From: an uncultured Desulfobacteraceae bacterium
Lineage (GTDB): Bacteria; Desulfobacterota; DSM-4660; Desulfatiglandales; B25-G16
NCBI GenBank assembly: GCA_964389665.1
Contig: CAYMFC010000002.1
Coordinates: 1-48,435, forward strand
Direction: 5' to 3'
DNA: 48,435 nt
Part shown: positions 24,335 through 35,246 of the stretch, piece by piece
Position numbering within the stretch: position 1 is the stretch's first letter
Layout of the letters: every line of letters starts with the position of its first letter
Made by a program: the position numbers and the translations under genes
The notes under the pieces: generated by a model
Told to the model about the DNA's origin: nothing
The model's input: only the letters and a program-made list of their open reading frames with translations
Database searches by the model: none

Positions 24335-26644
24335 GTGGGAAAAACATACGGCAATATCCTGGATGAGATCGGAAACACGCCTCTCGTGCCTATCGGTCGT
24401 TTAACCAAGAACCTCGGCGTGGCGGTGTATGCCAAGCTCGAGTCCTTCAATCCAGGGGGCTCTATCAAGGACAGGGTGGCGCTGTCGATGATTGAGGATG
24501 CCGAGCAGAACGGCCGGTTAACCAGGGAAAAGGTGATTATTGAGGCCACGAGCGGCAATACCGGTATCGGCCTCGCCCTCGTTGCCGCGATCAAGGGTTA
24601 CCGGCTCGTGCTCACTATGTCGGACTCGGTGAGTGAGGAACGGAAAAAGATCCTCGCGGCTTTGGGAGCGGAACTCAGGTTCACCCCGTCTCATCTTGGC
24701 ACCGATGGAGCAATCGAAGATGCCTACAACCTGGTTCGGCAAGAGCCGGAAAAATACTGGCTCGCGGACCAATTCAACAATGAGAGCAACTGGATGGCCC
24801 ATTATCGTGGAACTGCCGTCGAAATCTGGGAACAGACAGGCGGAAAAGTCTCTACGGTTGTCGCTGCCATGGGCACCACGGGCACTATAGTAGGCCTCTC
24901 ACGGAGGCTGAAGGAATACAATCCCCACATTGAGATAGTGGGGGTTGAGCCCTATCTGGGTCATAAGATTCAGGGAATGAAGAATCTCAAGGAATCATAT
25001 CGCCCTGAGATATTCGATAAAGCCCTCCTGGACCGTATCGTTCATATCGATGACGAGGTTGCCTTCCAGGTAGCAAGGAGGCTCGCCAAAGAGGAAGGCA
25101 TCTTCGTCGGCATGAGTTCCGGTGCAGCTATGGCCGCAGCCCTTAATGCGGCACATGAGATGAAGCAAGGCGTCGTGGTGGTGATATGTCCCGACGGCGG
25201 CGAACGATACCTGAGCACCAACCTGTTTACCGACCGAAAAAGGACTGGTATCAGGTTCTATAACACGCTCAGTAGGCAAATTAATGAATTCACCCCCATA
25301 AGGGAAAATGAGGTCACGATCTATTCCTGTGGACCTACCGTGTCGAAATTAATAGATATCGCGGAGTGCAGGAGGTACGTGGTCGCAGATATTCTGAGGC
25401 GCTATCTCGAATATAAGGGGTTTGACGTCACCCATATCATCAATATCACCGATCTGGACGATCGAACCATTCAGGGAGCAGAGGCCGCAGGGAAAGATCT
25501 AAAGACCTTTACCGACACCTATTACCAGGAGTTCCTCGAGGATATGGACGCCCTCAATGTCAAGAGGGCCGCCAAGTATCCCAGGGCAAGCGCGCATGTG
25601 GGAGAGATGATAGACACCGCTGAAAAGCTTATAGAGCGGGGCTTCGCCTATGAACGATTGCGCTCAGTCTATTTCGACATATCCCGTTTCCAGGACTATG
25701 GCAAGCTTTCCAGGGTGAACCTGGACAAGATCAAGGTAGGGAAAACGGTGGACCTGGATCAGTACGAAAAGGACAATCCGAGGGATTTCACGCTTCTCAA
25801 GAGGTCTACCCTCCATGAACTCAAGAAAGGTCTGTTCTTCTCCACCAAATGGGGTAACCTGCGTCCCAGCTGGCATATAGAATGCGCTACAATAGCCATG
25901 AAATACCTCGGCGAAACCTATGATATTCATACCGGGGGTGTCGATTTGATCTTTCCGCATCACGAAAACGACATAGCCATTTCAGAGGCCATTACCGGCA
26001 AGCCATTGGCAAACTACTGGCTTCACAATGAGCTGATCCGTGAGGAACAAGCGCCTGACCCACAAGAGACAAAGGCTGCCACACTCAGGGAAGTACTCCA
26101 GAAGGGATACCGCGGCAGGGATATCAGGTACTGGCTCATGCAGACCCACTACAAAAGGGCAATCTACTTTTCATGGGCAAAGCTGGCCATGGCGAGAAAT
26201 ACGGTTGCCCGTCTGGATAGATTCATCCATGCGCTCCGCACCTGCAAGAAGGGATCGGCTTCAGGCGAGATCAATCAGCTCATCTACGATCTTACCCGAA
26301 GCTTTGGCGAGGCAATGGATGAGGATCTAAATATTTCCCAGGCCCTGGCAGCGTTCTTCGGATTTACCCGTAAGGTCAACCGCCTCATTGACTCACATGG
26401 ATTAGCCCCGTCTGATCGAGAAAAGATCGAAGAGCTACTCGCTAGGATCAACTCTGTGCTCATGGTGATGGACCTCTCCGAGGTGCAATCAAACCAACAG
26501 ATAGAGGAATTGTTGAGGGAAAGAAGGGATGCGAGGGAACTCAGGGATTGGGCACGGGCAGACGCGATACGAGAGAAGCTGAAGGAATTGGGAATTGCGG
26601 TGCTCGACACACCGGATGGAACCACCTGGCATAGAATTCTCTGA
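24335..26644 (+). CDS. Fusion: PLP-dependent cysteine synthase (CysK/CysM-like) + CysRS-like domain lacking HIGH and KMSKS
   Basis: The 769-aa ORF has a GTG start after GAAGGGAG. Residues 1-300 carry the PLP Lys motif GGSIKDR plus TSGNTGIGLA, GTTGT and GMSSGAA. Residues 306-769 are collinear with cysteinyl-tRNA synthetase (YSCGPTV, NITDLDD, WHIECA, GGVDLIFPHHEND, C-terminal DGTTW). The HIGH position reads DIAE, and the KMSKS position reads an unrelated EEQAPDPQETK. Confidence 0.85.
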   Translation: MGKTYGNILDEIGNTPLVPIGRLTKNLGVAVYAKLESFNPGGSIKDRVALSMIEDAEQNGRLTREKVIIEATSGNTGIGLALVAAIKGYRLVLTMSDSVSEERKKILAALGAELRFTPSHLGTDGAIEDAYNLVRQEPEKYWLADQFNNESNWMAHYRGTAVEIWEQTGGKVSTVVAAMGTTGTIVGLSRRLKEYNPHIEIVGVEPYLGHKIQGMKNLKESYRPEIFDKALLDRIVHIDDEVAFQVARRLAKEEGIFVGMSSGAAMAAALNAAHEMKQGVVVVICPDGGERYLSTNLFTDRKRTGIRFYNTLSRQINEFTPIRENEVTIYSCGPTVSKLIDIAECRRYVVADILRRYLEYKGFDVTHIINITDLDDRTIQGAEAAGKDLKTFTDTYYQEFLEDMDALNVKRAAKYPRASAHVGEMIDTAEKLIERGFAYERLRSVYFDISRFQDYGKLSRVNLDKIKVGKTVDLDQYEKDNPRDFTLLKRSTLHELKKGLFFSTKWGNLRPSWHIECATIAMKYLGETYDIHTGGVDLIFPHHENDIAISEAITGKPLANYWLHNELIREEQAPDPQETKAATLREVLQKGYRGRDIRYWLMQTHYKRAIYFSWAKLAMARNTVARLDRFIHALRTCKKGSASGEINQLIYDLTRSFGEAMDEDLNISQALAAFFGFTRKVNRLIDSHGLAPSDREKIEELLARINSVLMVMDLSEVQSNQQIEELLRERRDARELRDWARADAIREKLKELGIAVLDTPDGTTWHRIL

Positions 26645-26708: not shown

Positions 26709-26802
26709 TGGCGGAGAGAGAGGGATTCGAACCCTCGGTAGAGCTTTTGACCCTACACTCACTTAGCAGGCGAGCGCCTTCAGCCATCTCGGCCATCTCT
26801 CC
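26709..26802 (-). tRNA. tRNA-Ser (anticodon GCU)
   Basis: I folded the reverse complement by hand. The acceptor is GGAGAGA/TCTCTCC, the anticodon stem is CTCGC/GTGAG with loop CTGCTAA, there is a long variable arm, and the T-arm is GAGGG-TTCGAAT-CCCTC. CCA is encoded. Confidence 0.9.
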
Positions 26803-26862
26803 GCAAATTCCCCATACACAGAACTATTATTTGCCCCAATAAAAATAGCTACGTTCCTTTTC

Positions 26863-26950
26863 TGGCGGAGGGAGTAGGATTCGAACCCACGGAGCATTGC
26901 TGCTCAACGGTTTTCAAGACCGCCTCCTTCAACCACTCGGACATCCCTCC
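26863..26950 (-). tRNA. tRNA-Ser (anticodon UGA)
   Basis: In the reverse complement the acceptor is GGAGGGA/TCCCTCC, the anticodon stem is GCGGT/ACCGT with loop CTTGAAA, there is a long variable arm, and the T-loop is TTCGAAT. CCA is encoded. Confidence 0.92.
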
Positions 26951-27105
26951 ATTGTTGTCGTATATACCATACGAGGGGAAATCCGTCAAAATTTTTTCAA
27001 AAAATCCAAGGTATGAACTATGTCGTCTCTCCTTTTCCGGCACCGAAGTTTTGATGGTTTGCCCTTTTTAATTACCCGTGGTTGCGATCGTACGATTCTT
27101 TATGA

Positions 27106-27134
27106 TTGACAGTAAGACTAATTTATCTTACTAA
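27106..27134 (+). promoter_or_regulatory. Putative promoter/operator of the mazEF-like operon
   Basis: TTGACA (27106-11) is followed by a 17-nt spacer and TACTAA (27129-34). An inverted repeat, AGTAAGA (27111-17) / TCTTACT (27127-33), spans the spacer, as expected for antitoxin autoregulation. Confidence 0.4.
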
Positions 27135-27171
27135 TAGGTAGCATGAAATATGAGCAAAAGGGGTGGGAAAA

Positions 27172-27414
27172 ATGAAATCAACAAAGGGAAAGGTCAGTAT
27201 TTCGCTGGATGCCTCCATTTTGCAGGACATTAAGATGTACTCTAAGTCTAAAAAGGTTTCCAGGAGCCAGGTAATTGAGAGTATCCTTAAAACGTGGCAG
27301 GCCGAGATCAAGAAACGGGAAATGATCGAGGGCTATAAGGCCATGACCCAAGAAAATACCCGAATTGCAGAAGATTTTTCCTCCTTAGCCCAAGAGGTGT
27401 GGCCTGATGAATAG
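27172..27414 (+). CDS. Ribbon-helix-helix (CopG/MazE-type) antitoxin
   Basis: The RHH pattern is KVSISLDASILQDIKMYSKSKKVSRSQVIESILKTW. I prefer the ATG at 27172 after AAAGGGG, whereas the track ORF starts at the GTG at 27163. It overlaps the toxin start by 8 bp. Confidence 0.75.
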   Translation: MKSTKGKVSISLDASILQDIKMYSKSKKVSRSQVIESILKTWQAEIKKREMIEGYKAMTQENTRIAEDFSSLAQEVWPDE

Positions 27415-27754
27415 ATTCCCTAAGCGCGGTGAGATTTGGCTAATCCAATTCGATCCGAAAGTCGGCTCCGAACAAGGAGGAACACGTCATGGTGTTATCT
27501 TACAAAACGATATTGGCAACGAGCACAGCCCTACGACGATTGTTGCCGCATTGACCACCACGATTCGTCAAATGCCCATCCACGTGTATCTGGACAAATC
27601 AGATGGAGTAGATCGCCCATCCATGCTCCTTTTGGAGCAGATTCACACCATTGACAAAAAAAGACTGGTAAAAAAAGTTGGCAGGATAAGGGATGAAAAA
27701 TTCAAAGAAATTTATGAAGCGGTCCTCTATAGCCTGGGATTTAAGGAGCTATAG
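27407..27754 (+). CDS. mazF: MazF/PemK-family endoribonuclease toxin
   Basis: The 115-aa ORF has the motifs PKRGEIWLIQFDPKVGSEQGGTRHGVILQND, PTTIVAALTT and LLLEQIHTIDKKRL, which are typical of PemK/MazF. Confidence 0.9.
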   Translation: MNRFPKRGEIWLIQFDPKVGSEQGGTRHGVILQNDIGNEHSPTTIVAALTTTIRQMPIHVYLDKSDGVDRPSMLLLEQIHTIDKKRLVKKVGRIRDEKFKEIYEAVLYSLGFKEL

Positions 27755-27833
27755 GATAATCTCACTACAATTAGGTTAGAATTTGAAACCTTGTAAAACA
27801 CTCCAAGTCCTTAGGATGAATTAAGACACAGTG

Positions 27834-27860
27834 TTGACTTTTACAAAATTGTAATACAAT
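27834..27860 (+). promoter_or_regulatory. Putative promoter/operator of the vapB-like gene
   Basis: TTGACT (27834-39) is followed by a 15-nt spacer and TACAAT (27855-60). The inverted repeat TTACAA-aa-TTGTAA (27841-54) lies within the spacer. Confidence 0.35.
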
Positions 27861-27891
27861 AGGTGAAACAAAGTGTTACGAGGTGATCGCA

Positions 27892-28185
27892 ATGAGCGTT
27901 TTGACCCTCAGAATAGAGAAAGAATTTCTCAAAAAATTGGATAGTATCTCTAAGGCAAGGGGCACGAATAGGAGCGCTCTCGTTAAAGAAATCCTGCAAA
28001 AGGCCTTGGAACAAGAAGGGCTGCCTGTAGACCAGGCAACTGTTGCCATGAAAAAAGGGGGAAAGCCCGATGTAGAAATAGATCGGGAAACGATAGACAG
28101 GGAACTGGAAAGGAGTAGCCCGTTTTTTTCCTCAATTGAAGAAGCAATGGGCCATAGCAGGAAGAGGGTATGGAAAAAAGGGTAA
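27892..28185 (+). CDS. Ribbon-helix-helix (CopG/VapB-type) antitoxin
   Basis: The RHH pattern is LTLRIEKEFLKKLDSISKARGTNRSALVKEILQKAL. I prefer the ATG at 27892 after GAGGTGA. It overlaps the PIN ORF start by 16 bp. Confidence 0.7.
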   Translation: MSVLTLRIEKEFLKKLDSISKARGTNRSALVKEILQKALEQEGLPVDQATVAMKKGGKPDVEIDRETIDRELERSSPFFSSIEEAMGHSRKRVWKKG

Positions 28186-28627
28186 AGGTTTTTATCGATA
28201 CGGATGTATACGTCATTGAAAGGAGATACACAAGGGATACGAAGTATCAAGAAACCGTGCGATTCATAGAAAGAGCGGTAAATAATGAGATCATCGCCTA
28301 TACCTCTATCTATAATCTATTAGAATTTTGTGGGATCCTATCATTTAATCTCAGCGCTGAAAGCACCGTAATGCTCTACCTTGGTTTTGCAAGAAAGTTT
28401 AATACCAACCATATTGTTCCCGGAGGAGGATGCCAGATTAGTATGTTTTGACCCCAAATCCATACTGGACCATATAAAGGGGAAGATGAGCTTCGGTGAT
28501 GCCGTTGATAACTTTCATAGTCGATAAAAATAAAAAAATCCTCGATGCCTTTGTGACATGGAACGTGGCGCATTTTAAGGACAAAGTAACGGTAGCTGTT
28601 CTGAATCCAAATGAAGTGATGCCTTAA
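28170..28627 (+). pseudogene. PIN-domain (VapC-like) toxin pseudogene with at least two frameshifts
   Basis: Frame 1 (28170-28451) gives the N-terminal PIN elements VFIDTDV and YTSIYNLLEF. The remainder is only readable after shifting frames. Frame 2 reads ...FDPKSILDHIKGKMSFGDA to about 28500. A third frame reads (P)LITFIVDKNKKILDAFVTWNVAHFKD... to the TAA at 28625-27. Confidence 0.65.
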
Positions 28628-28669
28628 GAATAGAAACACAGGGGAAACATTGAACAACGAGGTCAAAAA

Positions 28670-28975
28670 ATGAACTCATCATCCCAAACGTGGCGGCACC
28701 CCGGAGGTAAACTCAGAGAACTCGGCCCTGAGAACTTATCGGATGCTGAGCTTCTCGCCATACTGATCTCATCAGGCATCAAGGGAAAGCCGGCAGAAAC
28801 GATTGCCGGTGAGATCCTCGCCACATTCGGCTCATTCAAGGGAATGGCAAACCAGCCTTTACACAAGTTTCTTGAAATAAAAGGGCTGGGAGATGTGAAA
28901 ATTATCAGGATTGCTGCTGCCTTTGAGATCGCACGAAGGATAGTAAACCAGGTATTAAAAGACCATGAAAAGTAA
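28670..28975 (+). CDS. RadC-family N-terminal helix-hairpin-helix module only (no JAB/MPN domain)
   Basis: In this 101-aa ORF, LSDAELLAILISSGIKGKPAETIAGEILATFGSFKGMANQPLHKFLEIKGLGDVKIIRIAAAFEIARRI matches the N-terminal half of RadC/UPF0758 proteins. The ORF ends before the metalloprotease-like half and overlaps the next gene by 11 bp. Confidence 0.75.
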   Translation: MNSSSQTWRHPGGKLRELGPENLSDAELLAILISSGIKGKPAETIAGEILATFGSFKGMANQPLHKFLEIKGLGDVKIIRIAAAFEIARRIVNQVLKDHEK

Positions 28976-31900
28976 AAAACTGGGCAAAATCTCAAGCAAG
29001 ACGAAAACAGAGATTTTTAGGGCATCTGTTTTTGATGTCAGTGTCCACAAGACAGAGCGTACTTGCGTTGCCAAAGTAGCTGAATGGATTAATGGTATTG
29101 CCAAGAAAAAAGGGCTGGATATAGGTCCAGCCGAAGTCGAAACCCGCAGTGCAGATGACAAGTATCCAGATATCGTCATCTTTGAAAATCCCCGAAGTCA
29201 AAACCTTTTATGTGTAGCAGAATTTAAACCACCCTATTTTGATCCATTTGATGAAAAGGAGCTTAAAGAACCTTCAAGGCTGAAAGCAACTCATAGAAGG
29301 GCCAAATATTTTGCCACGTGTAATTTTAAAAAACTTATCTGGTTCAACACGGAAAAGGCAAATGCCTTTAAACCAGAAGAACAACAAATCGTTGAAAAAT
29401 ATCATCTCTCAGAACTTGAGAATCTGGATGATATTGACCAAACAAGGCATAGCGAGCCTATAAAGAAAGGGCTTGAAGATTTTCTTACCCAGCTTTACTC
29501 CGTCTCTTCAGGCAAAGAGCCCGAGCCAAAACAGGCGATCGACGAGTTTTTGATTTTCAGGCTCCAGGAGAAGATAAAAGTTCTCTCTACCTACTATAAA
29601 AGAATTATTGATGATCAATGCCACAAAGACCCTCCTTTCGCTAAGAGAATAAAGAACTGGTTTGTAGATCAGGGTTGGAGTTTTGTCTGGCAGCCCCAGG
29701 ACTTTGAGAAAGCGGCAAGACAGACTGCCTATCTTCTTATAAACAAAATCCTTTTCTACAACCTTCTTCAAGCAAAGAGACCGGAGGCCCTTGACCCTCT
29801 CGAAATACCTGAAGGACTTACAAAAGGTGCAGTGCTCCAGGCAACCCTTCAGGGTTATTTCAACCAGGTTTTGAAGATAGACTACGAAACTATCTATACC
29901 ACGGATTTCATAGATACCATAGCCTTCCCTGAGGCGAGAGAGGTGGTAAAAGAAATAAAAGAGCTTATTAGTGTCCTGAAAAGATATGACTTTTCTAAAC
30001 TTGGATATGATGTTATCGGCAGGATTTTTGAAGGCCTTATTCCCTCTAATGAACGGCACAATTTAGGCCAATATTTCACCAGCCCTGATGTGGTTGATTT
30101 AATCCTTGGGTTCTGTTTACATCATGAAGACAACAAGATCCTTGATCCAGCCTCTGGGGCAGGAACCTTTCTTGTAAGGGCCTACCAGCACAAAAAATTG
30201 ATGAATCAATATAAAAGTCACGAGGATATCCTCGAAACCCTTTGGGGGAATGATATTGCCAAATTCCCGGCTCACCTTGCCACAATAAACCTTGCTCTTA
30301 ACGACCTCGGTGCAGATAAGAATTATCCGAATATTCTTCAAGAGGATTTCTTTGCCCTTCTTGTCGGAGATAACGGTTTTGATCCTGAAAAATGGCGAAG
30401 GGTCAGGGCAAAAACACTTGGGCTTCAAGAGCGAGAAGTCATTTATCCACGCTGGTTTGATGCTGTGGTGGGCAATCCACCCTATACAAGGCAAGAGGAG
30501 ATAAGCAAAATCTCCCCTGAGGATGCCGAATACAAAAGAAAGCTTATCAATAAAGCTCTCTTGGATTTAAGAGGCAAAAAGACTGCTGAGATAGGAAAAC
30601 GAGCAGGCATCCATGCTTATTTTTTTGTCCATGGCACAAAGTTTCTAAAGGATAAAGGGTTTTTTGGATTCATCGTCTCAAATTCATGGCTCGATGTCGA
30701 CTATGGCAAAGGACTTCAGGAGTTCTTCTTAAAGAATTACAAAGTCGTTGCCATAATCGAATCCAAAGTAGAACGCTGGTTTGAAGAAGCAGACATTAAT
30801 ACCTGCATCATTATCCTCCAAAAGTGCAAAGACAGGAAGGAGCGAGATCAAAATCTCCTCAGGTTTGTGTATCTAAAGAAGTCGCTCAGATACTTTATTC
30901 CGCCAGCGCAGGATATGTGGGAAAAGCAGATTGAGAGACTAAATGCCATAGACAAACTCAAAAAAACTATCCTCGCCCATAATGAACTTTACGAGAATGA
31001 GGATTTGAGAATTTTTCCCAAAAAGCAGAGCGAGCTATGGGATGAGGGTTTTGACCTTGAGAAGGAAAAATATGTGGGAGCAAAGTGGGGCAAATACCTG
31101 AGGGCACCGGAGATCTTCTTTAAGATTCTGGAAAAAGGCAAAACTAAGCTCATCCCATTGAAAAAGATAGCGGAGATTCACAGAGGGTTTACAACTGGTG
31201 CAGACCCTTGGTTTTATGTTTCTGACATAACGAGCTTAATAGGGCCTAAAGAAATTGAGATGATGGCCAATAGATCAAACTACAAAGGAAAACATGAAAA
31301 TCTAAGACTCATCCTAAGTGGTGATGGAACAAAATGGCTTATCGAGAAGGAATATTTGTATCCTGTTATTCGTAATCCTGAGGATTATAAAAAGATTCTT
31401 ATAGACTTCGCATCGGTTGAAGATTTCGTTATTGTTGTAAGCGAGCCAAAAGACAAAATTAACAGCAAACTTGTCTATAATTATATTCTTCATGGTGAAA
31501 AGAAAGTATATAAGATGGGCAAAGATAGAAGTATGATACCTGCTAAAACCGACACATGCTCCTCAAGGGAGTATTGGTATCAATTACCAGCTATTAACCC
31601 ATCGCGTATTTTATGGCAAAAGGCATTTGACATTTACCACAGGCATTATATTGTCAGTAACAACGTCCTTGCAAACCAACGTTTCTACTCCATTTATCCG
31701 AAAAAAGTCCAAGATCTTGAAATAATAGCTGCCTTCCTAAACTCGCTGCTGGTTCCTTTATATCTTGAATTTCAGAGGTCGGGAATGGGGCTCGGAGCAA
31801 TTGAAGCAACAGTGGACGAAGTTAAAAGGATTTTAGTAGTTAATGCAAAAGTAGTAGAAGCTCCCGCAAGAAGTAAGCTATCGAAAGCGCTGAACAAGTT

Positions 31901-32552
31901 AGGAGAGAGGGAGATTGATTCAATTTTTGAAGAACTCGGTGCATACTCCCCCAAAGAGGTCTCCCTTGAAAAGGCCAAGGCTGATCGCAGGGAGCTTGAT
32001 AAAATCATTATGGGCGAAATCTTGGGGCTTACTGATGAGGAGCAACTTCAAGTCTATAGAGCCATAGTGGATTTGGTAAAATCAAGGATTGAGAAGGCAA
32101 AGAGCTTTGGCAAAAAGAAAAGAACAAAAGATGGAATAGATGTAGATGCCCTCGTTAAAACTGTCATGGACAAAATTGGCGATGAGACGCTTGGAAAATT
32201 CTATAAAGAAAAGATCATCACCCTGAAGCCCCTGCTAACAAAACCACTACCCCAGGAATCAGGCAAAGTCAGAATTCAACAACATTTATTCGGCTGGAGA
32301 CTTTCTTCTGGCAAGAAATATCTTGAATGTGATTCAGAAGAAGAAGCCCGCTATCTCAAAATCTTTCTCGAAGCAGGAATGGATACAGTGAACATCCCAA
32401 AAGATAATGAATACTTAAAAACCATCCTTCCAGAGATAGAAATCTTGCATGTAAAAATATCTGACATCATCAATTCCTATCTTGAATCCATTGCAGACAC
32501 AAAAACAAAAGCAACGATAAGCCATCTCCTTTGGACAGAGGTTATGAAATGA
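28965..32552 (+). CDS. Single-chain restriction-modification enzyme, type IIG-like (PD-ExK nuclease + N6-adenine methyltransferase + target-recognition region + C-terminal extension)
   Basis: The 1195-aa ORF has a candidate PD-(D/E)xK, YPDIVIF...LLCVAEFKPP, at about aa 67-90. It has SAM motif I (KILDPASGAGTFLV), catalytic motif IV (VVGNPPYTRQEE), an Eco57I-type segment (FFGFIVSNSWLDVDYG) and a TaqI-C-type TRD signature (IAEIHRGFTTGADPWFYV). Confidence 0.82.
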   Translation: MKSKKLGKISSKTKTEIFRASVFDVSVHKTERTCVAKVAEWINGIAKKKGLDIGPAEVETRSADDKYPDIVIFENPRSQNLLCVAEFKPPYFDPFDEKELKEPSRLKATHRRAKYFATCNFKKLIWFNTEKANAFKPEEQQIVEKYHLSELENLDDIDQTRHSEPIKKGLEDFLTQLYSVSSGKEPEPKQAIDEFLIFRLQEKIKVLSTYYKRIIDDQCHKDPPFAKRIKNWFVDQGWSFVWQPQDFEKAARQTAYLLINKILFYNLLQAKRPEALDPLEIPEGLTKGAVLQATLQGYFNQVLKIDYETIYTTDFIDTIAFPEAREVVKEIKELISVLKRYDFSKLGYDVIGRIFEGLIPSNERHNLGQYFTSPDVVDLILGFCLHHEDNKILDPASGAGTFLVRAYQHKKLMNQYKSHEDILETLWGNDIAKFPAHLATINLALNDLGADKNYPNILQEDFFALLVGDNGFDPEKWRRVRAKTLGLQEREVIYPRWFDAVVGNPPYTRQEEISKISPEDAEYKRKLINKALLDLRGKKTAEIGKRAGIHAYFFVHGTKFLKDKGFFGFIVSNSWLDVDYGKGLQEFFLKNYKVVAIIESKVERWFEEADINTCIIILQKCKDRKERDQNLLRFVYLKKSLRYFIPPAQDMWEKQIERLNAIDKLKKTILAHNELYENEDLRIFPKKQSELWDEGFDLEKEKYVGAKWGKYLRAPEIFFKILEKGKTKLIPLKKIAEIHRGFTTGADPWFYVSDITSLIGPKEIEMMANRSNYKGKHENLRLILSGDGTKWLIEKEYLYPVIRNPEDYKKILIDFASVEDFVIVVSEPKDKINSKLVYNYILHGEKKVYKMGKDRSMIPAKTDTCSSREYWYQLPAINPSRILWQKAFDIYHRHYIVSNNVLANQRFYSIYPKKVQDLEIIAAFLNSLLVPLYLEFQRSGMGLGAIEATVDEVKRILVVNAKVVEAPARSKLSKALNKLGEREIDSIFEELGAYSPKEVSLEKAKADRRELDKIIMGEILGLTDEEQLQVYRAIVDLVKSRIEKAKSFGKKKRTKDGIDVDALVKTVMDKIGDETLGKFYKEKIITLKPLLTKPLPQESGKVRIQQHLFGWRLSSGKKYLECDSEEEARYLKIFLEAGMDTVNIPKDNEYLKTILPEIEILHVKISDIINSYLESIADTKTKATISHLLWTEVMK

Positions 32553-32703
32553 GTGGAAGCAAATTATAAAAGGAAATCTAAATCAATGTGGGAAGGATTG
32601 GATATGGATTATCGAAAGATCCATTGTAATTGTATATGGTAATCATTGGCAAAAATGAAGAGGATTACTACAGTTTTGCAAAAAGGGGACTGATACAATA
32701 GGG

Positions 32704-34164
32704 ATGGAAGAGAAGGATCTAAAGAAGTTGTTGGCCTCAGGCGAAACCGATACCTTGGAGTTTAAAGAAAATTTTGACAAAAATACCATAGAGGCTGCCG
32801 GAGCGTTTGCCAATACAAAAGGCGGAACTATTATCATCGGCATCTCTGATAGAAATAGGGTTACAGGTGTGCACGTTGGAAGAGAAACGTTAAAAACCTG
32901 GGCAAACCAGATTTCTCAAAGTACCGAGCCTCGTATTATTCCCGGAATCGAGCTTGGCGAAATTAATAAAAAACCTGTCGCCCTTATTACCATTAAGGAG
33001 TTCCCTATCAAACCCGTATCGGTAAAAGGCAGATACTTCCGAAGGGTCGGAAATAGCAACCGCGTAATGAGTATGCAAGAAATTGCACAAATGCATTTTC
33101 ATTCCGTCGGGATGAGTTGGGATAAACTCCCGGCAAGGGATGCTTCTATGAAAGACATAGACCTTGAAAAGGTCAAAAAATACATTGATAAAGCGAATGA
33201 AACCGGCAGAAGAAAAATTCAGGCGGATGAGAATCCCATACAGGTTCTTGAAAAACTGGAGATAATAAAAGAAGAGACACCTACCTGGGCGGCAATTCTT
33301 CTTTTTCATCAGCACCCTCAGCGCCTTCTTCCCCAGGGAGTAATCCACTGCGGGAGATTTAAAGAAGAGATCATAGTCATTGACGATAGGATGATTGAAA
33401 GTACAATCACCGAACAGGTCGAAGAGGCTATGGATTTCATACGGAAGAATATCAACGTACAATTTGTTATGACCGGTGAGCCGGCACGGGAGCAAATCTG
33501 GGATTATCCTATTGATGCTTTGAGAGAAGCGATAATTAATGCGGTATGCCATAGAGACTACACGATTTCTTCAAATACTGAAATCAGGATATATGACGAC
33601 AGATTGATTGTGTGGAGTCCTGGTGGATTGCCGTTTGGCATTACTATTGAAGACCTGTACAGACCTCATCCCTCCGTGCTTCGGAACAAGGGAATAGCAG
33701 GGATCTTTTACGACATGGGATGGATTGAGCAGTGGGGAAGCGGGATAGATAAGATGCGAAATGCCTGTGTAAAGGCCGGACTTCCTGAACCTCAATTTGA
33801 AGAGTATCATGGGTTCCGGGTAATCTTCAGGAAAGATATTTATACAGAAGAATATCTCCGCAAAGCGGGCTTAAATGAGCGGCAGATTAAGGCGGTGATG
33901 CATGTGAAGGAGAAAGGGAGGATTACGAATAAGGAATATCAAGAGGCTAATGGGGTCTCCAGGCAGACTGCTGCACGTGAACTATCATATCTTGCGCAGT
34001 CTGATATATTCTTGAGGCATGGAAAAACAGGGAGAGATACCTATTATACTTTATCCGGAAAAACAACTGAAAGTGAAAACGCCTCACAAACGCCTAATAA
34101 ACGCCTCACAAACGCCACAAAGGGTCCGAAAGCGGGGTCAAAAACGCCGGAAATAAGCCACTGA
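32704..34164 (+). CDS. AlbA_2 (Schlafen-type) DNA/RNA-binding domain + HATPase_c_4-like domain + C-terminal wHTH protein (COG2865-type)
   Basis: The 486-aa ORF has an N-terminus, ESGETDTLEFKENFDKNTIEAAGAFANTKGGTIIIGISD, typical of AlbA_2. The central REAIINAVCHRDY...IRIYDDRLIVWSPGGLP is typical of the RecG-like ATPase-fold domain. The C-terminus (ITNKEYQEANGVSRQTAARELSYL) is an HTH, followed by a low-complexity basic tail. Confidence 0.82.
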   Translation: MEEKDLKKLLASGETDTLEFKENFDKNTIEAAGAFANTKGGTIIIGISDRNRVTGVHVGRETLKTWANQISQSTEPRIIPGIELGEINKKPVALITIKEFPIKPVSVKGRYFRRVGNSNRVMSMQEIAQMHFHSVGMSWDKLPARDASMKDIDLEKVKKYIDKANETGRRKIQADENPIQVLEKLEIIKEETPTWAAILLFHQHPQRLLPQGVIHCGRFKEEIIVIDDRMIESTITEQVEEAMDFIRKNINVQFVMTGEPAREQIWDYPIDALREAIINAVCHRDYTISSNTEIRIYDDRLIVWSPGGLPFGITIEDLYRPHPSVLRNKGIAGIFYDMGWIEQWGSGIDKMRNACVKAGLPEPQFEEYHGFRVIFRKDIYTEEYLRKAGLNERQIKAVMHVKEKGRITNKEYQEANGVSRQTAARELSYLAQSDIFLRHGKTGRDTYYTLSGKTTESENASQTPNKRLTNATKGPKAGSKTPEISH

Positions 34165-34268
34165 AAAAGCTCCATGAGGTTTGAGATACGTAAAGGCTTT
34201 ATATATTTTAAAAAAAGCATCAAGTGCATCGTAATTGCATCAATGGAAACTTATCAAAGATAATCGTT

Positions 34269-35246
34269 TTATTCCCGTCCTCCCAATATGCTTCCGGTAT
34301 ACAGGGTGCTCCCGCGAAAAAACTCCACTGCTGAAAGCCTCTTTTTCCCCGGGACTTGGATCTTGCTCACAATCACACACCCTTTTCCGGTCTCTATCTC
34401 AAGCCCTCTGTCCCCGACATACCTTATTCGACCGGGGCTGAAAGAATGCTCTTCATGGTGGGAAGACAGACACCCAAAGAGCTTCATCATGCCGCCCTGA
34501 TAAGGGGTAAAGGCCCCGGGCCAGGGATCCAGCCCCCTGATAAGCCCGCATATCTGTTCCGCTGGCCTGGACCAGTCTATCAATCCTTGCTCCTTGGTCA
34601 GCCTTGGGGCATAGGTGGCAAGGGAGTCATCCTGCTTTCTCGGTGCAACCGTACCGTGATTCAATCCCTGGATGGTTTTTATAAGCAGTTCAGGTGCAAA
34701 AGCAGAGAGCCTATCGTGCAGCCCACCCGCCGTCTCCCCTTCCAGGATATCTACCTCCTGCTGAAGGATGATCGGACCGGTATCAAGACCCTCGTCCATG
34801 AACATCGTGGTGAGGCCGGTGGTCTTCTCGTTGTTGATAATCGCCCACTGGATCGGGGCGGAACCCCGGTATCGCGGGAGCAGCGAGGCGTGGATATTGA
34901 TCCCACCCCACATGGCCACGCTCAGGACCTTTCCGGGAATTATCTGCCCGAAAGCCACTACGACAAGCAGATCGGGCTGTAATGGATTAATGGCCTCAAG
35001 GAATCTATCGTCAAGCCTTTCCGGCTGGAGAATGTTGAGATTATTCTCCTGGGCAACCACCTTGATTGGGGAAGGGGACAGTCTTTGACCCCGCCCTTTT
35101 GGCCTGTCAGGCTGGGTAACCACGCTGAGAATCTCGTATCTCTCACGGATGATCGTCTCAAGGGTAGGCACAGCGAACTGAGGTGTTCCCATGAAGACGA
35201 CCCTGGGCCGCGAGGGCAATGGCTCACGAGGGACTCTCTCATCCAT
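34269..35246 (-). CDS. fmt: Methionyl-tRNA formyltransferase
   Basis: The 325-aa ORF has the motifs VVFMGTPQFAVP, INIHASLLPRYRGSAPIQWAI and a C-terminal Fmt domain. It overlaps the def stop. Confidence 0.93.
   Translation of the reverse strand: MDERVPREPLPSRPRVVFMGTPQFAVPTLETIIRERYEILSVVTQPDRPKGRGQRLSPSPIKVVAQENNLNILQPERLDDRFLEAINPLQPDLLVVVAFGQIIPGKVLSVAMWGGINIHASLLPRYRGSAPIQWAIINNEKTTGLTTMFMDEGLDTGPIILQQEVDILEGETAGGLHDRLSAFAPELLIKTIQGLNHGTVAPRKQDDSLATYAPRLTKEQGLIDWSRPAEQICGLIRGLDPWPGAFTPYQGGMMKLFGCLSSHHEEHSFSPGRIRYVGDRGLEIETGKGCVIVSKIQVPGKKRLSAVEFFRGSTLYTGSILGGRE

Follow-up and report, generated by a model that had tools for sequence, protein, structure and literature searches.

A Type IIG-like restriction-modification enzyme family with a near-constant RadC-type helix-hairpin-helix partner

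Three co-directional open reading frames (ORFs) lie in a 48,435-nucleotide stretch of DNA from an uncultured Desulfobacteraceae bacterium (the window): a 101-aa relative of the N-terminal helix-hairpin-helix (HhH) domain of RadC (RadC-N), a 1195-aa nuclease-methyltransferase fusion (the enzyme) and a 486-aa Schlafen-like protein (AlbA_2). RadC-N and the enzyme are a real unit: across a large family of such single-chain restriction-modification (R-M) enzymes, RadC-N is a near-constant and apparently undescribed partner. AlbA_2 is a separate single-gene defence-type component and not a partner of this cassette. Together with its dedicated HhH partner and a C-terminal module that can also occur separately, the enzyme makes up a Type IIG-like R-M system. 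An original prediction, made from the window sequence, had the trio working together. Its description of the locus agreed with our data, as the three ORFs, the 11-bp overlap between the first two and the 151-bp gap from the enzyme stop to the AlbA_2 start are all present (Table 1), and its domain assignments were upheld by Pfam (UPF0758_N; N6_Mtase/Eco57I; SLFN_AlbA_2/HATPase_c_4/weak helix-turn-helix (HTH)). The proposed grouping holds for the RadC-N/enzyme pair and is not supported for AlbA_2.

The linkage was analysed from the enzyme side by scanning one genome per GTDB species with an enzyme alignment, leading to 80 loci that span Chloroflexota, Nitrospirota, Desulfobacterota, Ignavibacteria, Zixibacteria, Saccharibacteria, Planctomycetota and one Thermoplasmata archaeon. 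Upstream DNA of at least 350 bp was available for 76 of the enzyme loci, and all but two of these have a RadC-N homologue (74 loci; 60-84% identical), which directly precedes the enzyme in 68. All-against-all clustering of the flanking ORFs of the 80 loci gave no other conserved neighbour on either side of the enzyme. The RadC-N stop and the enzyme start overlap by 4-20 nt in most related loci, indicating that the translational coupling already suspected for the window is a trait of the family and not a peculiarity of this locus; the enzyme start in the window has a weak ribosome-binding site. Six loci (L030, L031, L033, L064, L035 and L039) carry small toxin-antitoxin (TA) genes in the 170-840 bp between RadC-N and enzyme, with a RelE/ParE-like toxin identified in three of them, and both genes have been kept, indicating two separate proteins. 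A single frameshift product of both genes was rejected on account of these inserts, separate genes being the rule. RadC-N, with a mean identity of 72% across loci, equals the methyltransferase core of the enzyme in this respect and is under strong purifying selection. Its identity correlates with that of the N-terminal and methyltransferase parts of the enzyme (r 0.58-0.68), but not with that of the specificity region (r 0.18). Second RadC-N copies upstream of the RadC-N/enzyme pair were seen in two loci (L072, 1217-1504; L029, 55-192).

The association was also found from the RadC-N side. A RadC-N-anchored metagenome scan led to at least 572 confirmed stretches among 600 candidates, and the 60 loci with at least 600 bp of downstream DNA were classified. 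In 47 of these, RadC-N is followed by an N6-methyltransferase fusion enzyme belonging to one of at least three or four families: the window-type enzyme (family A) in 32, another N6-methyltransferase fusion in 12, and other proteins with an NPPY-like motif in three, two of which combine N6_Mtase with Type_ISP_C. Among the 12 other fusions are HSDR_N_2/N6_Mtase proteins and an MmeI-like family B, whose N-terminus has D-X9-E-X-K. No large ORF was seen in eight loci, just two of which have at least 1.9 kb of downstream DNA, and something else follows in five, including two full-length RadC genes. Truncated RadC-N genes (67-aa ORFs, N-terminal half) overlapping the start of a 1025-1070-aa N6_Mtase + Type_ISP_C protein were observed in L156 (2285-5547) and L159 (221-3615), and these large proteins have a PglX/Type ISP-like specificity domain.

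RadC-N itself is matched in Pfam by UPF0758_N (PF20582) alone (64 bits; cutoff 27); the protein ends after the HhH domain, and the JAB domain (PF04002) gave no Pfam match. The NCBIfam RadC models PRK00024 and TIGR00608 stayed below their cutoffs (74.8 vs 180 and 62.4 vs 133.85), so that the protein has the N-terminal HhH domain of the RadC family (COG2003) while lacking JAB and a score at family level, and its partner is an R-M enzyme instead of a housekeeping radC context. An HTH was not detected by Pfam, NCBIfam or fold search, which returned UPF0758_N/HhH only. Relatives of RadC-N number in the thousands, and the best 120 range from 89 to 156 aa and carry UPF0758_N only. When 1.84 billion cluster representatives were searched exhaustively, 3709 clusters matched RadC-N at E<=0.001. 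Of the best 150 of these clusters 146 carry UPF0758_N, 11 of them with the RadC JAB domain and 135 without it. HhH-only RadC-N is thus the norm in a very large family rather than the atypical fragment for which it had been taken. The JAB-less clade shares 60-90% identity across phyla, but only 30-50% with the N-domains of full-length RadC.

Two clusters among the best 150 (P0458 and P0459) show RadC-N fused to a beta-class DNA methyltransferase (N6_N4_Mtase), and a shorter RadC-N protein (P0424) gave a weak UPF0020 methyltransferase match at its C-terminal end. About eight further clusters of this set (P0363, P0364, P0367, P0380, P0396, P0419, P0426 and P0439) are tandem double RadC-N proteins of ~190-215 aa. 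In P0399, RadC-N is joined to a transmembrane/TPR protein. The AlphaFold2 (AF2) model of RadC-N is all-helical, with Foldseek neighbours that are almost all HhH DNA-binding/dimerisation modules (LigA, MutY, ERCC1-XPF, FANCM-FAAP24, UvrC), all at E>1. Another origin of RadC-N was also rejected, in which the enzyme gene would have inserted into a host radC and left RadC-N as its 5' part: no JAB remnant lies 3' of the enzyme in the 80 loci, and identity is higher within the JAB-less clade than to full-length RadC. The radC stub in the window (see below) is not the missing half of RadC-N, as it comes from another RadC clade tied to the AlbA_2 module. Plasmid and phage collections yielded nothing closely related to RadC-N or the enzyme, and IMG/VR matches were limited to two contigs.

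For the 1195-aa protein, Pfam matches to N6_Mtase (78.7 bits) and Eco57I (75 bits) were above cutoff, and a PADLOC run on the window, as the original prediction had proposed, gave REase_MTase_IIG as best model (E 4.6e-52, 175 bits, residues 61-753). At least 1456 homologues were found at E<=1e-10 among 8000 scored candidates, the best 120 of them 57-100% identical, 1036-1232 aa long and from many uncultured lineages; annotated Type IIG genes of isolates have only 22-28% sequence similarity to the enzyme. A nuclease and a methyltransferase in one chain, gamma-class N6-adenine motifs and a variable target-recognition region in the same chain were all found, from which we infer a Type IIG-like R-M enzyme. 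Mean pairwise identity in the target-recognition region is 39% compared with 72% in the methyltransferase core, the kind of hypervariability that diversifying pressure would produce in a specificity domain and that fits an active R-M enzyme. PDB sequence matches were restricted to the methyltransferase/target-recognition part (M.BseCI, HsdM, M.TaqI, MmeI), and Pfam found nothing significant in the isolated N-terminal domain, C-terminal helical segment or C-terminal module. The AF2 model has a mean predicted local distance difference test score (pLDDT) of 58.9 and is too poor to define the methyltransferase domain. Residues 30-340, the N-terminal domain, reach ~80-90, and the C-terminal module is likewise modelled with confidence; the best Foldseek match of this low-confidence model was BpuSI (3s1s; E 4e-4, TM 0.12-0.15), followed by BsaXI, LlaGI and BrxX. 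Membership in MADS was rejected (MAD2 NCBIfam 65.4 bits vs cutoff 720; RadC-N as sole conserved neighbour), as was BREX (PglX NCBIfam 23 bits vs 500 and 14.6 vs 400; brx genes absent from the window island and from related loci). As both fail on cutoffs and missing partner genes, the protein was treated as a Type IIG-like R-M enzyme.

With Type IIG enzymes of the Eco57I/BpuSI kind it shares the domain order, the PD-ExK and NPPY motifs, the Eco57I/N6_Mtase Pfam matches, the PADLOC IIG model and a variable specificity region, and BpuSI is its best structural match, at the low confidence of the model. The window enzyme exceeds them in length by ~300 residues and has, in its C-terminal part, a conserved helical segment as well as a 121-aa module that is separable; in its family, the gene nearly always follows that of an HhH protein to which its translation is coupled. 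To our knowledge no HhH partner is known for characterised Type IIG enzymes, nor was one found in the literature searched, and no description of a RadC-N/Type IIG pairing was found in the searchable literature or among PADLOC models.

The last 121 residues (C-terminal module, CTD) are fused to the enzyme in the window and form a separate downstream gene in roughly a fifth of the loci, including that of the closest relative (76% identity); the enzyme ORF then ends at residue 1071-1076. In L114 (554-4503) a family-B enzyme stands between a RadC-N gene (83% identical to that of the window) and a separate CTD gene (49% identical to the last 121 residues of the window enzyme), as if the gene in the middle had been exchanged while the small conserved genes on both sides stayed. 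The CTD model is a confident small alpha/beta domain whose structural matches, small ferredoxin-like folds at E>2, were uninformative. On this pattern of fusion and separation the CTD is a separable module and would be a portable third component of the cassette.

For the third gene the same survey gave a different picture. An AlbA_2 homologue was found near the enzyme in one of the 51 loci with at least 2 kb of downstream DNA, and that copy is 7.4 kb away and 28% identical; the gene is absent beside the closest enzyme relative. Co-localisation across genomes, on which the idea of a working trio depended, was therefore confirmed for the 101-aa protein and not for the 486-aa protein. The 151-bp spacer is not neutral and holds the last ~65 nt of a full-length radC, encoding a protein end in VIIGKNEEDYYSFAKRGLIQ followed by the stop codon. 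This stub has 65% identity over 23 aa to residues 286-308 of the RadC in L163 (tblastn, E 1.5e-4), and its DNA could be aligned with L177, L181, L163 and L164. A truncated radC stub in front of AlbA_2 shows that the gene was cut out of a RadC-AlbA_2 module and that its adjacency to the enzyme is a rearrangement scar. A promoter-like match (32646-32674) lies inside the stub; such matches occur at chance level in number.

The source of the module became apparent from 11 independent contexts with AlbA_2 homologues of 67-83% identity. Five are within Type I R-M operons, between hsdR and hsdS/hsdM, two to three are beside an SNF2/NOV_C helicase + DUF1156 methylase system and three are elsewhere, giving 7-8 R-M-type contexts in total. 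The preference of the clade for R-M-type operons makes a second-line R-M component, as originally predicted, plausible for the family; it is not specific to Eco57I-type fusions. Full-length RadC (HhH and JAB) is encoded directly upstream of the AlbA_2 homologue in four of the five Type I cases, as overlapping stop/start pairs with a 308-aa RadC that has an N-terminal extension (L163, 5038-7365; L164, 5351-7368; L177, 2932-5231; L181, 1-2201). These RadC proteins are 78-83% identical to each other and ~30% to the window RadC-N. L177 also has, upstream of an intact hsdR-radC-AlbA_2-hsdS operon, a decayed window-type RadC-N pseudogene with two in-frame stops (109-393). Apparently, RadC-N cassettes and Type I operons can replace one another at shared sites. 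In P0232, RadC-N has a C-terminal extension resembling the HsdR EcoEI_R_C tail, and both this tail and the L177 pseudogene look like recombination scars between the two kinds of locus.

AlbA_2 matched SLFN_AlbA_2 (78.9 bits) and HATPase_c_4 (88.9 bits) in Pfam; its C-terminal HTH gave DUF977 at 19.8 bits, below cutoff, and homologues carry HTH_11, DeoR or HTH_24 matches. Homologues number 2532 at E<=1e-20, the best 120 being 66-100% identical and from bacteria and archaea, and E14, E19, K21 and D49 of the nuclease domain are invariant in 20 of them. Next to homologues of ~450-465 aa, the C-terminal tail of the window protein is longer and unrelated, and an 18-nt motif, AAACGCCTCACAAACGCC, occurs three times at 11-nt spacing within the 3' end of its gene (34077-34116). 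A PADLOC pAgo model matched residues 23-309, consistent with the known Schlafen-GHKL-Argonaute family (bioRxiv 10.64898/2026.05.29.728809). Bacterial Schlafen-like proteins had been called functionally uncharacterised in the original prediction, but PMC13056530 describes prokaryotic Schlafens (pSlfn) as phage-activated, Mn-dependent defence tRNases and lists a 'HisKinase-HTH' fusion as their second most common architecture (19.2% of pSlfn). AlbA_2 resembles this group in its order SLFN_AlbA_2, HATPase_c_4, HTH, in the invariant E14/E19/D49 and in its defence-island context; the experimentally studied RorSlfn5 has a different sensor domain, and the correspondence of E14/E19 to E15/D20 of RorSlfn5 is by position only. 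A term search of that paper found no Type I R-M or full-length RadC context for the AlbA_2 clade.

With moderate confidence we read RadC-N as a dedicated (HhH)2 accessory subunit that may help the enzyme to hold, scan or bridge DNA. The region 28670-32552 would then be one mobile R-M cassette of three modules, RadC-N, enzyme and CTD, in which the enzyme would methylate host sites and cut unmethylated foreign DNA. RadC-N would be a non-specific DNA binder, made in step with the enzyme via the overlapping stop and start, that would, probably as a dimer, help the methyltransferase/nuclease to engage or bridge DNA, by analogy with the (HhH)2 modules of XPF-ERCC1 or UvrC. AlbA_2 originates from a RadC-AlbA_2 module normal to Type I R-M operons and was brought beside the cassette by rearrangement. 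The fusions to DNA methyltransferases suggest that RadC-N acts on DNA alongside the methyltransferase and not on a promoter, and the tandem double proteins suggest that the working unit is probably a dimer. Like the nuclease-attached (HhH)2 modules of XPF-ERCC1, Mus81, FANCM-FAAP24 and the UvrC C-terminus, RadC-N combines a predicted helical HhH fold, association with a PD-ExK-type nuclease and tandem forms hinting at a dimer; the likeness is one of analogy, as Foldseek E-values exceed 1, and RadC-N differs in being a separate polypeptide with a partner that is also a methyltransferase. Several points weigh against this reading. Enzyme loci without RadC-N exist (L007, L041), as do distant haloarchaeal Type IIG homologues without it, suggesting that the enzyme fold can do without RadC-N in principle, and apparently orphaned RadC-N genes occur as well (L087, L099). 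RadC-N does not segregate by partner family (mean identity A-A 0.70, B-B 0.64, A-B 0.63), which argues against a partner-specific interface and fits a generic DNA role or a regulatory role equally. The structural matches of RadC-N are weak and the enzyme model is poor, the nuclease and methylase activities are assigned from motifs, and a physical complex, dimerisation and DNA handling are our inferences. The upstream-motif test used below against a regulator was a crude one, based on shared 7-mers only.

A regulatory role of RadC-N, in which it would set the timing or level of the enzyme after entry of the cassette, by promoter-near DNA binding or translational gating as an analogue of Type II C proteins, is possible but rather unlikely. 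Like many C genes, the RadC-N gene is small and lies just upstream of the gene it would control, often overlapping its start, and one type of RadC-N occurs with enzyme families unrelated to each other, as would suit a regulatory module able to move between systems, and shows no partner-specific divergence. The tolerated TA genes between both partners, neither of which was lost, and the weak ribosome-binding site of the enzyme, which may make it dependent on upstream translation, would also suit such a role. However, RadC-N has an HhH fold instead of an Xre-type HTH, and HhH domains bind DNA through its backbone, irrespective of sequence. Despite 60-90% protein identity, the shared 7-mers in the 120 nt upstream of RadC-N in 70 loci were only A-rich words, revealing no operator-like or C-box-like motif in this crude test. 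RadC-N is also far more conserved in sequence than C proteins, and its methyltransferase fusions and tandem duplications are hard to explain for a transcription factor, a role that is the less likely one for RadC-N. Still less probable is a non-cutting enzyme, centred on the methyltransferase in a BREX/MADS-like or epigenetic manner, whose PD-ExK fold is non-catalytic and in which RadC-N aids methylation only; we regard this as very improbable. Although the weak MAD2 and PglX matches and the fact that the RadC-N fusions found are to methyltransferases and not nucleases point in this direction, the invariant D69/E86/K88, the Type IIG model as best PADLOC match, MAD2 and PglX scores far under their cutoffs, the lack of other BREX or MADS genes conserved nearby and a hypervariable specificity region typical of systems selected by restriction all speak against it.

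PrrC in the EcoprrI Type I operon offers a precedent for an anticodon nuclease that guards R-M. In a three-gene unit of this manner, Schlafen-GHKL-HTH would act as second line of defence, either guarding the R-M enzyme or restrained by it, with RadC-type HhH proteins as common adaptor. The R-M-type contexts of the AlbA_2 clade, four of them directly after RadC, and the phage-triggered tRNase activity of bacterial Schlafens (PMC13056530) would fit, and read-through from the enzyme into AlbA_2 is conceivable, since no terminator-like site separates them on the + strand. For the window we nevertheless judge this arrangement improbable: the single distant AlbA_2 homologue among the enzyme loci, its absence from the closest relative, the radC stub marking an excision from another operon and the full-length, only distantly related RadC that accompanies AlbA_2 elsewhere all oppose it, as would the promoter-like site in the stub, for what a match at chance level is worth. 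The likeness to PrrC lies in a latent tRNA-cleaving protein among R-M genes, as for the AlbA_2 homologues between hsdR and hsdS/hsdM; the two are unrelated in sequence, no Type I genes are left in the window and the coupling of AlbA_2 to R-M would be by analogy. A PrrC-like guard role would be an attractive reading for the radC-Schlafen pair inside Type I operons, whose recurrence is a second, separate lead. Both leads could be joined, in a reading we consider speculative and unlikely, by taking JAB-less RadC-N as an obligatory DNA-handling subunit across unrelated single-chain (Type IIG/IIL-like) R-M families and, in parallel, full-length RadC with a Schlafen-GHKL-HTH tRNase as a conserved two-gene PrrC-like backup in Type I operons that fires on R-M inhibition, RadC-type HhH proteins then being a general, so far unrecognised class of R-M accessory factors. 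If true, the two sides of this link between RadC and R-M would be seen next to each other in the window.

The locus is part of a low-GC island of ~27.0-34.2 kb (GC 0.39-0.44 vs ~0.50-0.55 in the flanks by composition profile), bordered by two tRNA-Ser genes on the left and fmt/def on the right. The GC minimum of the whole window is at 31-33 kb, in agreement with the prediction that the genes occupy its most AT-rich part. The two TA modules predicted upstream are present: the MazE-like/MazF module is intact, and in the second the PIN/VapC-like toxin is a pseudogene whose reading frame is broken at least twice in three-frame translation, its ribbon-helix-helix (RHH) antitoxin partner being intact. 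The claim of no obvious terminator before AlbA_2 was borne out, as no + strand terminator-like site was detected at 26900-34400; promoter and terminator scans of the island gave match numbers at chance level. No integrase or att-like repeat explaining the arrival of the island was found in the window. Just left of the tRNA-Ser pair, a 769-aa ORF (24335-26644) is an apparent fusion of a CysK/CBS-type pyridoxal phosphate enzyme and a cysteinyl-tRNA synthetase.

Table 1. Positions of the cassette, its motifs and the neighbouring features in the window.
Feature	Position	Strand	Description and basis
RadC-N gene	28670..28975	+	101 aa; UPF0758_N (HhH)2-type, JAB-less; conserved upstream partner of enzyme gene
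RadC-N stop/enzyme start overlap	28965..28975	+	11 bp, ATGAAAAGTAA
Type IIG-like single-chain R-M enzyme gene	28965..32552	+	1195 aa; PADLOC, Pfam, homologues
Predicted PD-(D/E)xK nuclease motif D69 ... E86-F-K88	29169..29228	+	D69, E86, K88 invariant in 26 aligned homologues
Predicted gamma-class N6-adenine methyltransferase core	30144..30485	+	Motif I D394-P-x-x-G-x-G-T-F402 to motif IV N504-P-P-Y507; invariant in 26 homologues
Variable target-recognition region, residues ~751-985	31215..31919	+	Identity profile; weak TaqI_C match
CTD, last 121 aa, residues 1075-1195	32187..32549	+	Fused in window; constant split point in relatives
radC (JAB-domain) 3' stub	32636..32700	+	tblastn and DNA alignment; within 151-bp spacer
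SLFN_AlbA_2 - GHKL/HATPase_c_4 - HTH gene (AlbA_2)	32704..34164	+	486 aa; Pfam; independent of RadC-N/enzyme cassette
MazE-like antitoxin and MazF/PemK toxin	27163-27414 and 27407-27754	+	Pfam PemK_toxin 103 bits, DUF6364; NCBIfam MazF; island context only
RHH antitoxin and PIN-like toxin pseudogene	27883-28185 and 28170-28627	+	Pfam RHH_1; three-frame translation; island context only
tRNA-Ser genes, two	26709..26950	-	ARAGORN; left border of low-GC island

In defence annotation and in the mining of biotechnology reagents, a Type IIG enzyme counts as a single protein that needs no partner. With a conserved HhH partner, enzymes of this family may fail or misbehave when cloned alone, and defence-finder models for them are incomplete. 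The long-puzzling HhH domain of RadC gains a concrete, testable molecular context, and the placement of a widespread clade of bacterial Schlafens within Type I R-M operons, beside full-length RadC, leads to a testable hypothesis on its trigger.

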